The translations under genes and the position numbers were made by a program. A DNA stretch of 64,000 bases from a virus (Duplodnaviria > Heunggongvirae > Uroviricota > Caudoviricetes), in the IMG/VR virus record IMGVR_UViG_2974578479_000001, positions 64,001 through 128,000 of that record. One strand, 5' to 3'. The notes under the pieces were generated by a model that was given only the letters and a program-made list of their open reading frames with translations, was not told the DNA's origin and made no database searches. This document shows positions 5,853 through 37,129 of the stretch, in pieces. Positions within the stretch are counted from its first letter, which is position 1; every line of letters starts with the position of its first letter.

Positions 5853-6407
5853 ATGAAAAATACAATCATTGTGAACTTAGTTGGTGGACCATGTTGCGGT
5901 AAGAGTACTACCGCAGCAGGACTATTCGCTAAGATGAAATTACATACTAAGCAACAAGTTGAAATCGTAACAGAAGTCATTAAAGATTATGTATACGATG
6001 AAAATAAAATGGCTATGCAAGATCAAGTACTAATTACTGCAAACCAAAATCACCGCCTATTCCGGTTAAAAGGAAAGGTGGATTTTGTCGTTTCTGATGC
6101 TTCCCTTTTGAACGGAATTGTATATAATGAGTTTTATCATGACATGGAAAATATCAGTTCAAGAGTAGCATTTCAATTGTACGAACAGTACGAGAATATA
6201 GTATTTTTGCTTCCACGTAAACCAGAATACGATCAGTATGGTCGTACACAAACACTTGAAGAAGCAAAAGAACTTGACCGTTTATTTGTTGAAAATTTAG
6301 AACATTTACGTATTCCATATATTGATATGCGTGAATACACACATGAAGAAATGCCTGATCGTATTCTTGATGTTCTAAGCAATCGTTTTGGATTTGACGT
6401 TCATTAA
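5853..6407 (+). CDS. P-loop kinase/ATPase, NadR-like (AAA_28 type)
   Basis: GGPCCGKSTT Walker A; VSDASLLN; YDQYGRTQTLEEA. Confidence 0.7.
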   Translation: MKNTIIVNLVGGPCCGKSTTAAGLFAKMKLHTKQQVEIVTEVIKDYVYDENKMAMQDQVLITANQNHRLFRLKGKVDFVVSDASLLNGIVYNEFYHDMENISSRVAFQLYEQYENIVFLLPRKPEYDQYGRTQTLEEAKELDRLFVENLEHLRIPYIDMREYTHEEMPDRILDVLSNRFGFDVH

Positions 6408-6465
6408 AAATTATATTTTATCAACTTTTTTATATTGGGTAAACGTTGACCTAAGTATTAAAAAC

Positions 6466-6479
6466 TTGATCTAGATCAA
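6466..6479. promoter_or_regulatory. FNR-binding site (consensus match)
   Basis: TTGAT-CTAG-ATCAA is a perfect TTGAT-N4-ATCAA; TATTAT -10 at 6503-6508; lies upstream of nrdD. Confidence 0.75.
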
Positions 6480-6481
6480 AG

Positions 6482-6508
6482 ATAATACCCCTTCATATGG
6501 GGTATTAT
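6482..6508. repeat. 10-bp perfect inverted repeat over the nrdD promoter
   Basis: ATAATACCCC-ttcatat-GGGGTATTAT. Confidence 0.8.
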
Positions 6509-6555
6509 ATATTTTAAGTGCGTAAATAATTCACCTTAACAGACACGGAGCGTCA

Positions 6556-8379
6556 ATGATGAATAATGATAGATTGTATAGTGACATTAACGAATTTCTA
6601 AACCAAAGTAATAAAGATCTTCTAAATGAGAATGCTAACAAAGATGCCAAGATTGTAAACACTCATAGAGACTTGCTTGCTGGCATTCTTTCCAAGCATT
6701 GGGCTGAAGATATTCTTTCTGAAGATTTAATGCAATGGCATAAAAATGGATATGGTCACATACATGATCTGGATTATTTTATTAGTCCTTTAACAAATTG
6801 TTGTTTAGTAAATTACAGAGATATGTTAGAGAATGGATTTAAAATCGGTAATGCACAAGTTGGAACTCCTAATAGTATTGGAGTTGCTAGTACTATATTG
6901 ACTCAAATTGTACTCGCCGTATCAGCTAGTCAATATGGAGGTCAAACATTAGCACATATTGACTATGGTCTTGAGCCATACGTTCAGAAGTCCTATGAGA
7001 AGCTACAGCAGCTTCAAACAGAATTCAACCTACCGGATGAATATGTGGAAAAAGCCTTACAGAAGGAAGTGTATGATGCTATGCAAGCCCTCTTGTATCA
7101 AGTTAACACCATCACGTCTAGTAATGGACAAACGCCATTTGTGACAATAAGTTTAGGATTAAATAAATCCAAATTTGGTCAAATGATAACTGATTCATAT
7201 TTGAAAGTACATGAAAAAGGTTTAGGTGTTGATGGCAATACTCCAGTATTTCCTAAAGTAGTTTTCTTCCTTGAAGATGGTGTTAATCTTAAACCTGAAG
7301 ATCCAAATTACTTTTTAAAAGAACAAGCTATGCGTACTGCATCCAAAAGAATATATCCAGACTTTGTTTCAGTACCATTGAATAGAAAGGTCACTGGTTC
7401 AAAAAGTGTTCCTGTATCACCAATGGGATGCCGTTCATTTTTAAGTAAATGGGAAGATGATAGCGGTACTGAACAGTATGATGGTAGATTCAATCTTGGT
7501 GTAGTTTCTATTAACTTACCACTACTTGCATTAGAATCCGAATCAGATGGTGATTTCTTTGGTAAGATCGATCATCATATGAATATGGCCTATAGAGCAC
7601 AGATGAACCGTGTAGAACGTCTTAAAAAGATGAAAGCACGTCAGAATCCAACAATGTTTATGGAAGGTGCAATTGCCCGTTTAGGAGCAGATGATACTAT
7701 TGATAAATTATTTTATGATGGATATGCTAGTATTAGTATTGGGTTCGTTGGATTAGCAGAATGTTCAGAAATCATAAAAGGGCATTTGAACAAAGATTAT
7801 TGTAAGTCTATTTTACATTATATGAAATATAAATGTGAACAATTCAAAAAGGACAGTACTTTATCATTTAGCTTATATGGAACACCAGCAGAAAGTTTAT
7901 GTTATAAATTTGCTAAATGTATCGAATTGAAGTATCCAAATGTTTTAAAACGTGACTTTATTACAAATTCATTCCATCAACCTGTGTGGGTAGAAAGTAC
8001 TCCATTTAGTAAGTGGGATTATGAAGAAAGTTTTGCATATCTAAGTAATGGTGGTAATATAAGTTACGTAGAAACACCAAATCTATCTAACAATATTAAG
8101 GCACTTGAAACCTTAATTGACTATGCGTATGATAGAATTCCATATTTTGGTATTAACCAACCAGTTGATAAATGCTATAAATGTGATTTTGAAGGTGAAT
8201 TTGCTGTAGATAAAATTGGTTTCCATTGTCCATCATGTGATAATAGAGAAGAAGGTACTATGTCAGTAATTAGACGAGTATCAGGTTATCTAAGTGCACC
8301 TAATAGTAGAGCGTTCAATACTGGAAAACAACAAGAAGTTATTCAGAGAGTAAAACATGAAAGACAATCGAAAGAATGA
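6556..8379 (+). CDS. nrdD: Anaerobic (class III) ribonucleotide reductase, large subunit
   Basis: HIHDLD, TNCCLVN, MGCRSFL, YGTPAESLC, CxxC..CxxC zinc site, RVSGYL glycyl-radical loop; no ATP cone. Confidence 0.97.
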   Translation: MMNNDRLYSDINEFLNQSNKDLLNENANKDAKIVNTHRDLLAGILSKHWAEDILSEDLMQWHKNGYGHIHDLDYFISPLTNCCLVNYRDMLENGFKIGNAQVGTPNSIGVASTILTQIVLAVSASQYGGQTLAHIDYGLEPYVQKSYEKLQQLQTEFNLPDEYVEKALQKEVYDAMQALLYQVNTITSSNGQTPFVTISLGLNKSKFGQMITDSYLKVHEKGLGVDGNTPVFPKVVFFLEDGVNLKPEDPNYFLKEQAMRTASKRIYPDFVSVPLNRKVTGSKSVPVSPMGCRSFLSKWEDDSGTEQYDGRFNLGVVSINLPLLALESESDGDFFGKIDHHMNMAYRAQMNRVERLKKMKARQNPTMFMEGAIARLGADDTIDKLFYDGYASISIGFVGLAECSEIIKGHLNKDYCKSILHYMKYKCEQFKKDSTLSFSLYGTPAESLCYKFAKCIELKYPNVLKRDFITNSFHQPVWVESTPFSKWDYEESFAYLSNGGNISYVETPNLSNNIKALETLIDYAYDRIPYFGINQPVDKCYKCDFEGEFAVDKIGFHCPSCDNREEGTMSVIRRVSGYLSAPNSRAFNTGKQQEVIQRVKHERQSKE

Positions 8380-8773
8380 AACTTGTTATCGTAGATGGGT
8401 GTTCGATAAGCCTAAAAACGGTAAGAAAAGAGAAAAAACATATTTTCCAAAGGGCAAGAAAATGCCCTTAAAAAAAGCATTTGATATTGTAGTGCAAGGA
8501 TTACTTGCAGGAAAAGGGTTACATCCATCCGTTGATTATATCTGGTACGCAGAGAAAATTTCAGCAGAATGTAATGTTCATGTTGATTTAGTTCGTCAAG
8601 TACTACATAAATTAAATCTAGAGGGATGTTGCTCTAAAAGAATACTGTGGGATGCTAGAGGTGGAATGTTCGCCATGCATACACGGTTAGATTGGGGTGA
8701 CGCAGTAGTTCCTTGGGAAGCAAAAGAGTATCATGTAAATATGGATAAACTTAAAGAGAAATATGGAAAATGA
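8357..8773 (+). CDS. Hypothetical basic protein
   Basis: Overlaps the nrdD stop; operon packing. Confidence 0.6.
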   Translation: MKDNRKNETCYRRWVFDKPKNGKKREKTYFPKGKKMPLKKAFDIVVQGLLAGKGLHPSVDYIWYAEKISAECNVHVDLVRQVLHKLNLEGCCSKRILWDARGGMFAMHTRLDWGDAVVPWEAKEYHVNMDKLKEKYGK

Positions 8774-8940
8774 TTCAATATGTAATTACTGAAGGAATAC
8801 ATACTGGAACTATATTTTCTATTATAATGTCAAGAAGTGTTGTTTTGAAATCTGACACTATTCCAGTTGGTACATTGCTATCAAATATACCAGATGATGA
8901 ACGCATGAAAATGAGATTTAGAGTTTATGATCCCAATTGA
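8770..8940 (+). CDS. Small hypothetical protein (56 aa, not in ORF track)
   Basis: MIQYVITEGIHTG...RVYDPN; ATGA overlap with the previous stop. Confidence 0.5.
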   Translation: MIQYVITEGIHTGTIFSIIMSRSVVLKSDTIPVGTLLSNIPDDERMKMRFRVYDPN

Positions 8941-9436
8941 TTTAAAAGAAAGAGAGAATATGATCTTATATTTCTCTCTTAAAAATAAGCATGGTTATTC
9001 ATTAGATAATTATGATGAAGTACTAGAACAATTAATTTCAGATCTTAAACCAAAAGTACAACAATATTATGCAATTATAATTCCTGAAAGTTCATCACCA
9101 TTTTTAGAAGATGTTGTTAAGCGATGTGGAAAACCATATATTATTGTAAAGAAAAATAATATACAGTACTTTAAAGATTTAGCACCAACATTAGGATTAC
9201 AAAAGGCTGAGCTTAAAAGTCATTTATCTAGAATGGATGACATGGGAGAATCTTTCAAAATTAATATGTTGAAAGCTACTCAGCGTGATAAGTACATTGA
9301 AAGTTTATTTTGTACTACAATCTCCCCTAACAATTCTATCATTATTGATGATAGTAATTTCTCTGGAAGTACCAAAAAGGCATTACAGTTTAGTACTGGA
9401 TGTTCTGAGTACTTACCAATTTTTACAAAAGGATAA
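8927..9436 (+). CDS. Phosphoribosyltransferase-fold-like protein
   Basis: [13 protein letters not shown] resembles the type I PRTase PRPP-binding loop; IIIPESSS near the N-terminus. Confidence 0.45.
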
Positions 9437-9440
9437 TAAA

Positions 9441-9803
9441 ATGACAATCAAAGCAATTCAAATTCTACGTGGTGAACACGAAGGTACAATTTTGATTCAT
9501 GATGAAACAACTGCACGTGTAATTGTTTCCAAAACATTAGAAGAAGATTCTGAATTACCAATGGCACAATTTTGGGGTGAATCTGTTCGTGAGGTTAATA
9601 TCGAATATCCAACCTTAATTGAGGGTGGTCAGCATTTAAATGTTAACGTACTAACACGTGAACAATTGGAAGATGCACAACAAAATCCAGAAAAATATCC
9701 ACAACTAACTATTCGAGTTTCAGGTTATGCAGTTCGCTTTAACTCTTTAACCAAAGAACAGCAAGATGATGTAATTTCTAGAACTTTCACTACTAAGGTA
9801 TAA
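9441..9803 (+). CDS. grcA: Autonomous glycyl radical cofactor (GrcA/YfiD-like)
   Basis: [46 protein letters not shown]; start ATG 9441 after AGGA. Confidence 0.92.
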
Positions 9804-9807
9804 TATT

Positions 9808-10254
9808 ATGATTCACGATAAGGTTAATACTTTATGGGGTCTTCGTTTTAATGATTCAGAATTACTTGGGTATCTTCCAGTATTTGATGAAGAACATAAG
9901 GCTATTTCATATTATTCATGTGAAAATATGCATCCTGAATATGAATATCGTCGAGTTGTCCCATGTTATCAGTACAAAGTATCTGAAGAATGGACTTCTT
10001 CTGAAGAAGATTTCTTTATGCAAGAAAAATTACCCAAAAAGTCTAGGGAAGATTTAGTACTTCAACATGAAATCTATCGTGATGATTATATCAAGAACTT
10101 CCAAGACAACAAATATGTTGTAATTTTTGTTGGTTGTGATGATGGGGATAAGGTGATGCGTTTCAAAGATAGAGAATCAGCAATCAAATTTTTGGAAGGT
10201 ATTACCTATTATGATGAAATTTTTGATGATATGCTACTAATGAGTAATTATTGA
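9808..10254 (+). CDS. Hypothetical protein
   Basis: Operon packing between grcA and nrdG. Confidence 0.65.
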   Translation: MIHDKVNTLWGLRFNDSELLGYLPVFDEEHKAISYYSCENMHPEYEYRRVVPCYQYKVSEEWTSSEEDFFMQEKLPKKSREDLVLQHEIYRDDYIKNFQDNKYVVIFVGCDDGDKVMRFKDRESAIKFLEGITYYDEIFDDMLLMSNY

Positions 10255-10727
10255 TGAACTATCAAACAATAGTGAAAGATGATTTGATTAATGGAACTGG
10301 CGTTCGCGTCAGTTTATATGTTTCTGGATGCAGTCATGGATGTGCTGGGTGTTTTAATGAATCAGCATGGGATTATCGTTCAGGAATACCATTTAGTACT
10401 GAACAAATCAATGATATTCGAATTGAATTATCAAAATCTTATGTTGAAGGATTAACACTTTTAGGTGGAGATCCTTTAATGCCAAAGAATATTGATACAG
10501 TACTAGAATTATGTAGAATCGTTAAAGAAGAATTTCCAGATAAAAACATATGGTGCTGGACTGGATATACATTAGAGCAAGTACTTTCCAATCACGCACA
10601 TGATGCATTACAATATATTGATGTATTAGTAGATGGAAAATTTGAGGAAGAATTAAAAAATCTAAAATTATCATTTAGAGGTTCAGAAAATCAAAGAGTA
10701 CTTTTTAAAGGAAAGGACTATGACTAA
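10254..10727 (+). CDS. nrdG: Anaerobic RNR activating radical-SAM protein
   Basis: NGTGVRVSLYVSGCSHGCAGCFN (CxxxCxxC), GLTLLGGDP, FRGSENQR. Confidence 0.95.
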   Translation: MNYQTIVKDDLINGTGVRVSLYVSGCSHGCAGCFNESAWDYRSGIPFSTEQINDIRIELSKSYVEGLTLLGGDPLMPKNIDTVLELCRIVKEEFPDKNIWCWTGYTLEQVLSNHAHDALQYIDVLVDGKFEEELKNLKLSFRGSENQRVLFKGKDYD

Positions 10728-10899
10728 AGAAGTTATTGTTTATGATAAGAAATTTCATGAAGATGAAATAGAAATGATTGATCCGATGGATTTTTTAACA
10801 GATGATGTTGTAACTGATGTATTTGGACTACCACGAGGAACGTTTCATGTAGTGGTTACATTTACACCAGATCCAAATTATGATCCAGATGAAGAATAG
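10720..10899 (+). CDS. Small acidic hypothetical protein (59 aa, not in ORF track)
   Basis: AAGGA RBS; MTKEVIVYDKK...DPDEE. Confidence 0.55.
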   Translation: MTKEVIVYDKKFHEDEIEMIDPMDFLTDDVVTDVFGLPRGTFHVVVTFTPDPNYDPDEE

Positions 10900-10921
10900 G
10901 CACCCATAGGGTGCCTTTTTT
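10898..10921 (+). terminator. Intrinsic terminator ending the anaerobic operon
   Basis: AGGCACCC-ata-GGGTGCCT followed by T-run. Confidence 0.85.
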
Positions 10922-37054: not shown

Positions 37055-37099
37055 AATTTGTACAGCAGCTTGAAAAAGCTGCTTTTTAAGTAAAAAAAA

Positions 37100-37129
37100 T
37101 TGAAACGCCACAAAATATTGTGGTATAAT
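37100..37129 (+). promoter_or_regulatory. Promoter, TGAAAC/TGGTATAAT class
   Basis: TTGAAA-18 bp-TATAAT. Confidence 0.65.

Follow-up and report, generated by a model that had tools for sequence, protein, structure and literature searches.

A probable FNR-activated promoter in front of the anaerobic ribonucleotide reductase operon of RaK2-like jumbo phages

Promoters activated by the oxygen sensor FNR in Enterobacterales include a well known set of class II promoters, in which the FNR site is centred at -41.5, as in narG, dmsA and nirB, or at -40.5, as in yfiD/grcA. The promoter of the host nrdDG operon carries two FNR sites, reported at -64.5 and -33.5, plus NrdR boxes. Enterobacterales hosts possess FNR. 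Lytic phages are usually thought to run a timed transcription programme of their own, and in phage T4 the genes nrdD, nrdG and Y06I are scattered, and do not form one operon. Activation of the E. coli and Salmonella nrdDG genes by FNR, and their repression by NrdR, are attributed to Boston & Atlung 2003 and Roca et al. 2008 in the passages of PMC4009431 and PMC2892513 that deal with them. Induction of nrdD, nrdG and yfiD by oxygen limitation has been reported in E. coli, Dickeya and Pectobacterium, and FNR sites have been described in the two latter genera (PMC3349551). We describe here a palindrome located upstream of the nrdD gene in a stretch of 64,000 nucleotides (nt) of phage DNA, hereafter the window, which corresponds to bases 64001-128000 of the 357,154-bp genome of a giant phage of Serratia/Erwinia, a lytic jumbo phage (IMG/VR record IMGVR_UViG_2974578479_000001). 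We regard it as probable that this palindrome is a site for the host FNR protein, and forms the class II, sigma-70 promoter of an operon including nrdD, a grcA-like gene and nrdG.

The palindrome TTGAT-CTAG-ATCAA (TTGATCTAGATCAA; it reads cTTGATCTAGATCAAag), at 6466-6479, matches the FNR consensus at all 10 positions. A TATTAT hexamer, a 5/6 match to the -10 consensus, is found 23 nt downstream. With TATTAT spanning residues -12 to -7 the centre of the box is at -42.5, and a start nearer by one base would give -41.5; transcription is predicted to start at about 6514-6515. The interval 6480-6485, where a -35 hexamer should reside, reads AGATAA, and matches TTGACA at one position out of six. Coordinates and layout are as claimed in an earlier, sequence-only reading of this DNA, which had noticed both the perfect box and the lack of a canonical -35 at the proper distance from the implied start. 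Two additional conserved sequences flank the predicted promoter. A TAAATAA box lies further downstream, at about +9 to +15 of the predicted transcript. Upstream, about 20 nt from the FNR box and covering roughly -72 to -63 relative to the predicted start, a block AAACGTTRAYC forms invariant columns in the Eneladusvirus/Mimasvirus clade only.

The sequence-only reading had tied its proposal to the conservation of the box in close relatives, and the comparison bears this out. The sequence TTGAT-N4-(A/G)TCAA precedes nrdD, at the same promoter distance, in all the 16 RaK2-like jumbo phages compared. The set includes members of the genera Eneladusvirus, Mimasvirus, Asteriusvirus and Alcyoneusvirus, the unclassified 7t3 group, and contigs from IMG/VR, and the recorded hosts are Serratia/Erwinia, Yersinia, Cronobacter, Pectobacterium, Salmonella, Klebsiella and E. 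coli. Because the 16 phages form a single family, the conservation amounts to that of a few independent lineages, not of 16. All the 14 residues of the box are invariant in the alignment of the close clade (the window, Yersinia fHe-Yen9-03 and fHe-Yen9-04, Cronobacter GAP32, Pectobacterium CBB, "Xanthomonas" XbC2 and Erwinia Kaldavass), and the directly adjoining bases vary on both sides; the box is unchanged in all 8 members of the Eneladusvirus/Mimasvirus clade. Distant phages picked by nrdD homology only, namely Salmonella 7t3, Klebsiella fENko-Kae01, Erwinia Hallingskeid, and E. coli EJP2, A4 and PBECO4, carry TTGAT(C/T/A)TAG(A/G)TCAA. The 346-kb genome of Klebsiella RaK2 has no more than two perfect boxes, and one of them, TTGATTTAAATCAA, is located 96 nt before nrdD. 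Flanks, and the 43-nt spacer separating the box from TAAATA, are only 34-44% identical between clades, and in an ungapped comparison of 13 phages over about 130 nt the fully conserved columns are found only in TTGAT.TAG.TCAA and TAAATA. Within the box, changes among the 16 phages are confined to the N4 spacer and to position 10 (A/G), which is the symmetry mate of position 5. The latter is the weakest position of the FNR consensus. Persistence of the box in place in 16/16 diverged genomes, amid adjoining bases free to vary, is the pattern of a functional site. A scan of IMG/VR with a composite pattern of FNR box and TAAATA gave 18 matches. Eight reside before nrdD in jumbo relatives; the scan contributed four further jumbo contigs to the set of phages compared. 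The other 10 matches, with no NrdD match in the fetched DNA, were set aside as chance occurrences in unrelated AT-rich contigs.

The geometry of the promoter is best seen in distant clades. In nine relatives (7t3, Kae01, Hallingskeid, EJP2, A4, PBECO4, RaK2, and the two IMG/VR contigs L026 and L027) the box is located 22-23 nt before a canonical TATAAT. In several of them the -10 is of the TGn-extended type, and in none of the nine was a -35 found. Since, relative to the start predicted from the -10, a 22-nt spacer places the centre of the box at -41.5, and a 23-nt spacer at -42.5, these regions have the predicted geometry of class II FNR promoters; the window represents the 23-nt form, with TATTAT as -10. 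The natural FNR site of fdnG is similarly located at -42.5 (PMC3349551). In distant clades the upstream gene is followed by a strong terminator (AAAGCACCC...GGGTGCTTTTTT), the box comes about 35 nt later, and TATAAT is 22-23 nt beyond the box; TAAATAA is found after another 14-15 nt, and precedes a Shine-Dalgarno sequence and nrdD. In the PBECO4 record (KC295538.1) the annotated start of nrdD (L012:729) falls inside the predicted promoter, the box being located at 689-702 and TATAAT at 725-730. The true start is probably the ATG found about 80 nt further on, after AAGGAA. No CRP/FNR-family protein encoded by the window phage was detected by PF13545 and PF00027 searches. Conservation, class II geometry with canonical TATAAT in relatives, and the lack of a phage protein of this family thus support, at the comparative level, the notion put forward by the sequence-only reading that the phage exploits the FNR of the host.

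The palindrome might be the target of another protein, either a phage regulator or a different host factor, and the similarity to FNR sites would then be convergent. Such a view could account for the invariance of spacer residues T7, A8 and G9 in the 15 phages besides RaK2, which FNR does not need, and the co-conserved TAAATA hints at a logic specific to these phages. Yet, the half-sites match the FNR consensus exactly, and both are kept in RaK2 although the spacer has changed to TTAA. Several sites would be usual for a regulator encoded by a phage, but the genome contains a single copy of the 14-mer. Together with the lack of a CRP/FNR-family gene in the phage, and the control exerted by FNR on the host copies of the downstream genes, this makes recognition by another protein highly improbable.

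Other types of phage promoters do not provide an alternative start for the operon. Three classes were defined by analyzing intergenic k-mers of the genome: early (cTTGACA..TGGTATAAT), middle (GAAACG-N13-TGGTATAAT) and late (ATAAATA located 35-60 nt before start codons). They match the classes published for CBB and GAP32, in which the middle motif corresponds to the "divergent RpoD-like" class (PMC5259590). Sequences of the middle type, (T)GAAACG-N13-TGGTATAAT, are found at 37102 in the window (101102 in the genome), and at 191797, 201289, 226490, 306184 and 319209 in the genome. No early, middle or late signature was found inside the nrdD operon, or between the terminator and nrdD. An early promoter was rejected as cTTGACA..TGGTATAAT is absent from the region, a late one as TAAATA departs from the ATAAATA consensus. 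The AAACGTT block is reminiscent of the middle motif, and was rejected as a middle promoter as no -10 is found at the right distance.

In the window the spacer has a peculiar organization, being occupied by a 10-bp hairpin (ATAATACCCC / GGGGTATTAT) followed by TTTTAAG at 6512-6518. The 23-nt spacer and the -10 make up the hairpin, and TATTAT itself is the 3' arm. The free energy is -14.5 kcal/mol (z -3.5), and none of 200 shuffled sequences folds as well. The structure forms in 6/6 phages tested, and in Yersinia phages the outer stem is altered on both arms. Stem with GC pairs, T run and two-sided changes are features of a terminator, the T run being only TTTT, 3 nt past the stem. Hairpins followed by TTTTAAG are found at 15 of the 33 intergenic TTTTAAG sites of the genome, against 21% of stable folds at random intergenic positions. 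Examples of the hairpin plus TTTTAAG(T) form are located at 37084 in the window (101084 in the genome), and at 188238, 249612 and 298643 in the genome. As this form recurs genome-wide, the hairpin most likely serves as intrinsic terminator for the AAA_28/thymidylate-kinase-like gene located upstream, which is outside the nrdD operon and the transcript of which would stop there. The Eneladusvirus/Mimasvirus clade lacks the separate upstream terminator present in other clades. Both designs would shield nrdD from read-through, and in the window clade the terminator would be folded into the promoter, a weaker -10 being the cost of this arrangement.

One may argue that in the window clade the box drives no promoter at all. 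According to this hypothesis the hairpin does no more than terminate transcription of the upstream gene, and nrdD depends on a promoter located elsewhere, or FNR acts as a repressor or roadblock. The hairpin has the usual form of the terminators of this phage and overlaps the -10, which is poor in Yersinia phages, and a promoter scan revealed a weak sigma-70-like pair, TTAAAA-17-GATAAT at 6458-6486, which would hold the FNR box in its spacer. This pair was rejected as the nrdD promoter since GATAAT is not kept in relatives. Against the hypothesis are the invariance of the box in 8/8 members of the clade, amid flanks which vary on both sides, and the conservation of the distances from box to -10 and from box to TAAATA, which are the same as in the clades with canonical promoters. 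With no promoter of another type between terminator and nrdD, we consider such a scenario extremely improbable.

The TAAATA box had been flagged by the sequence-only reading as late-like. The box is there, and is invariant in all 16 phages, but it deviates from the late consensus. The base preceding TAAATA at nrdD is G, C or T, never A, while an A is found at this position in 33 of the 51 intergenic sites of the genome; no ATAAATA or TATAAATA sequence is located 35-60 nt before the nrdD start codon. In 16/16 phages the distance from the FNR box to the start of TAAATA is exactly 43 nt, and TAAATA is conserved as well as the FNR box. Over the same set of phages the position of the -10 differs by 1 nt, and TAAATA is separated from the ATG by 25 to 40 nt, the interval between the two boxes being fixed. 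The composite of FNR box and TAAATA is found nowhere else in the genome. The hypothesis that TAAATA is a general feature of the sigma-70 promoters of the phage was rejected, the composite being unique to nrdD. TAAATA may mark a second promoter, which would have FNR in a class I location (-61.5/-62.5), may act as a pause element resembling a -10 within the initially transcribed region, or may be an element of the mRNA leader. The fHe-Yen9-03 record (LT960552.1, L001:763-790) reads the region differently: TTGAAT, in the hairpin arm, is annotated as a -35, and GTAAATAAT, in the TAAATA box, as a -10. The annotated -35 is not conserved among relatives.

The first of these readings deserves to be weighed. 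FNR may bind the box, and the promoter served, alone or in addition, may be the one built on TAAATA (6523-6528). FNR would contact the alpha subunit of a polymerase carrying either sigma-70 or the gp55-like late sigma of the phage, and late expression of nrdD would be oxygen-gated as well. The exact 43-nt distance, kept in spite of spacer turnover, of the shift of the -10 and of the variable distance to the ATG, is in favor of this reading, as are the uniqueness of the composite, the -10 signal placed on GTAAATAAT in the fHe-Yen9-03 record, and the likeness to the late motif ATAAATA (PMC5259590). On the other hand, TAAATA is never preceded by the A typical of the late consensus, and in most phages it would be a sigma-70 -10 devoid of the conserved final T. 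The canonical TATAAT found at the class II position in nine relatives suffices alone. We know of no precedent for FNR acting on a gp55-type holoenzyme. On balance, a promoter built on TAAATA is unlikely. In a more elaborate version, one FNR dimer would serve two promoters separated by two helical turns, a sigma-70 class II promoter (-41.5) early in infection, and a TAAATA-based promoter (-61.5/-62.5) read by a gp55-like late sigma through class I contacts with alpha. The 43-nt distance would then be fixed in every lineage because one dimer serves both promoters. If so, oxygen sensing by the host would govern the oxygen-sensitive reductase during the whole of infection, also once the phage has replaced the host sigma. 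We hold this dual arrangement to be quite unlikely.

Several observations weigh against a class II FNR promoter, which remains our preferred interpretation of the region. The match to the consensus is by itself not beyond chance, and the case rests on position and conservation. The box is the sole perfect match in the window, where 0.5 are expected, and at least one match was found in 40 of 100 shuffled sequences. Perfect boxes in the genome are 3, versus about 1.4 expected from base composition. Five related genomes host 2-5 perfect boxes each, similar to a reversed-pattern control. Position, however, speaks for the site: two of the three perfect boxes are inside open reading frames (ORFs), and the box at 6466-6479 is the only intergenic one. 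No one-mismatch FNR box is located at promoter distance in any intergenic region of the genome, and no other FNR site was found before grcA or nrdG, or elsewhere at promoter distance. The -10 is weaker in the window clade, being TATTAT or TATTTT, or TTGAAT, which lacks the key A, in Yersinia phages, and its conservation could be structural, given that it doubles as an arm of the hairpin. The near invariance of the TAG spacer is not required by FNR, and the conservation of TAAATA at a fixed distance is not explained by the class II model; TAAATA could moreover give FNR-independent or late expression. Phage XbC2 (OP292654.1), recorded on the aerobe Xanthomonas vesicatoria, keeps identical box and hairpin. 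In a T4-like phage checked nrdD abuts gene 49, and neither an intergenic region nor an FNR site is found. Finally, the phage may remodel the host polymerase during infection, limiting the action of FNR to early times. XbC2 is very close to the Erwinia phage Kaldavass, and its recorded host, or host range, would merit re-examination.

In the class II model, FNR would dimerise around its [4Fe-4S] cluster only in anoxic infected cells. The dimer would bind the palindrome, centred at about -41.5/-42.5, replacing the missing -35, and would recruit the host RNA polymerase with sigma-70 to the weak -10. Transcription would proceed from near 6514 through nrdD, the grcA-like gene, nrdG and five small ORFs up to the terminator at the operon end. 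Transcripts of the upstream gene would be halted by the hairpin just before the start, and the operon would consequently rely on its own promoter. Because a perfect FNR box is kept at the same promoter distance in every related phage examined, the phage probably turns on the nrdD-grcA-nrdG genes in anoxic host cells.

The genes downstream of the predicted promoter form a 4.3-kb run which includes nrdD, three ORFs, the grcA-like gene, an ORF, nrdG and a small ORF (Table 1). Neighbouring genes overlap, or are at most 5 nt apart, up to 10899. Coordinates and terminator coincide with those given by the sequence-only reading, and both NrdD and NrdG pass curated cut-offs. NrdD matches profile NF006732 at positions 95-709 only, and lacks the N-terminal ATP cone. 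For this reason the phage enzyme is probably devoid of overall-activity control by dATP/ATP. Assignment of grcA is less sharp. The protein matches TIGR04365 over its full length (4-119; E 1e-39) and has the motif RVSGYAV, but the score of 135.5 bits is below the 170-bit cut-off. Similarly, the PRTase-like gene recognized in the sequence-only reading finds partial support: the 169-aa ORF resembles a PRTase-family cluster in the ESM Atlas (TM 0.74; feature score 0.92-0.95), but has no match in Pfam, PHROGs or NCBIfam, and should be regarded as a lead. The interval between nrdD and nrdG varies among relatives. CBB has a "structural protein" (CBB_144, L033:3521-4285) and no annotated grcA, as judged by annotation only, unlike the window phage, in which the interval hosts the PRTase-fold ORF and grcA. 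The sole genes that look common to CBB and the window phage are nrdD, the 148-aa ORF, nrdG and the trailing small ORF.

Table 1. Features of the nrdD region, with positions in the window
Feature	Position	Strand	Evidence or remarks
AAA_28/thymidylate-kinase-like gene	5853..6407	+	Pfam AAA_28 E 2e-19; phrog_2107 thymidylate kinase
Block AAACGTTRAYC	6442..6452	+	Invariant columns in alignment; Eneladusvirus/Mimasvirus clade only
Perfect FNR consensus site	6466..6479	.	10/10 consensus positions
10-bp hairpin, most likely a terminator	6482..6508	+	Terminator scan; followed by TTTTAAG
Predicted -10 hexamer TATTAT	6503..6508	+	5/6 match; 23 nt 3' of FNR box; no -35
TAAATAA box	6523..6529	+	Invariant in all 16 phages
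Shine-Dalgarno GGAG of nrdD	6547..6550	+	Sequence; kept in close-clade alignment; nrdD ATG at 6556
nrdD, class III (anaerobic) ribonucleotide reductase	6556..8379	+	Pfam NRDD E 1e-159; NF006732 755 bits (cut-off 657)
ORF 138 aa, no family	8357..8773	+	Hypothetical in pEa_SNUABM_12 annotation
ORF 56 aa, no family	8770..8940	+	Pfam/PHROGs scans
ORF 169 aa, PRTase-like fold, a lead only	8927..9436	+	ESM Atlas
GrcA/YfiD-like autonomous glycyl-radical cofactor, 120 aa	9441..9803	+	Pfam Gly_radical C-terminus; motif RVSGYAV
ORF 148 aa, phrog_24799	9808..10254	+	PHROGs; ESM Atlas leads weak
nrdG, radical-SAM activase of NrdD	10254..10727	+	TIGR02491 199.6 bits (cut-off 126); Pfam Fer4_12
ORF 59 aa, phrog_11659	10720..10899	+	Also 3' of nrdG in CBB and GAP32
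Intrinsic terminator at operon end	10898..10916	+	8-bp stem, 6 GC pairs, then TTTTTTG (terminator scan)

The region is 99.8% identical to the Erwinia phages pEa_SNUABM_12, 50, 19, 44 and 49, which belong to the species Eneladusvirus BF, and the kin of the phage are the RaK2-like jumbo phages (PMC7760394). Papers dealing with the genomes of these phages treat promoters with no mention of an FNR site (PMC7760394, PMC5259590). In line with the sequence-only reading, which knew of no earlier description, no published FNR site at a phage nrdD gene was found in the literature searched (FNR with phage or nrdD, and studies on RaK2-like promoters), the coverage of which is incomplete. A group of giant enterobacterial phages appears to leave one metabolic module to an environmental sensor of the host. 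If this is true, the class III reductase, which is oxygen-labile, would be produced, along with its activase and a spare glycyl-radical protein, only where these proteins can function. If borne out, the operon would be a clear example of host physiology gating an auxiliary metabolic operon of a phage. The finding would have a bearing on how phages replicate in the gut, in plant tissues and in other niches poor in oxygen, and hence on the use of these phages of Erwinia, Pectobacterium, Klebsiella and E. coli in therapy and biocontrol.

Comparison with described systems highlights what is shared and what is peculiar. As in the class II FNR promoters of E. coli and other Enterobacterales, TTGAT-N4-ATCAA covers the -35 slot, a -35 hexamer is missing, a sigma-70 -10 is found 22-23 nt on, and genes for life in anoxia lie downstream. 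In contrast to those promoters, the one described here resides in the genome of a lytic jumbo phage, the spacer in the window clade is taken up by a hairpin, the probable terminator, which also provides the -10, and an invariant TAAATA is located at 43 nt. Compared with textbook FNR promoters, two features are new: a probable terminator contained within the promoter, and a TAAATA box locked in phase. The window contributes the Eneladusvirus/Mimasvirus form, which has the embedded terminator, an operon containing grcA, and the fixed phase of TAAATA, measured on 16 phages.

The likeness to T4 concerns the genes more than their organization. The nrdD genes are homologous, about 69% identical at the DNA level over part of their length, and both encode enzymes lacking the ATP cone; a GrcA-type spare glycyl-radical protein is found in either phage (Y06I in T4). 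Unlike the T4-like phage mentioned above, in which no FNR box precedes nrdD, the window phage has an intergenic region with a predicted promoter. A further parallel is offered by the nrdDG genes of E. coli and Salmonella, as the same NrdD and NrdG pair would be under the same oxygen sensor in the phage. Because host nrdDG is FNR-activated, and nrdD, nrdG and yfiD are induced by oxygen limitation in three enterobacteria, the predicted regulatory logic mirrors that of the host. No NrdR-type box was noticed by eye at the phage nrdD, where no pattern scan was run. The design differs from that of host nrdDG, since a single consensus site, at the predicted class II position, is found in the phage, the operon of which includes grcA and five small ORFs in addition.

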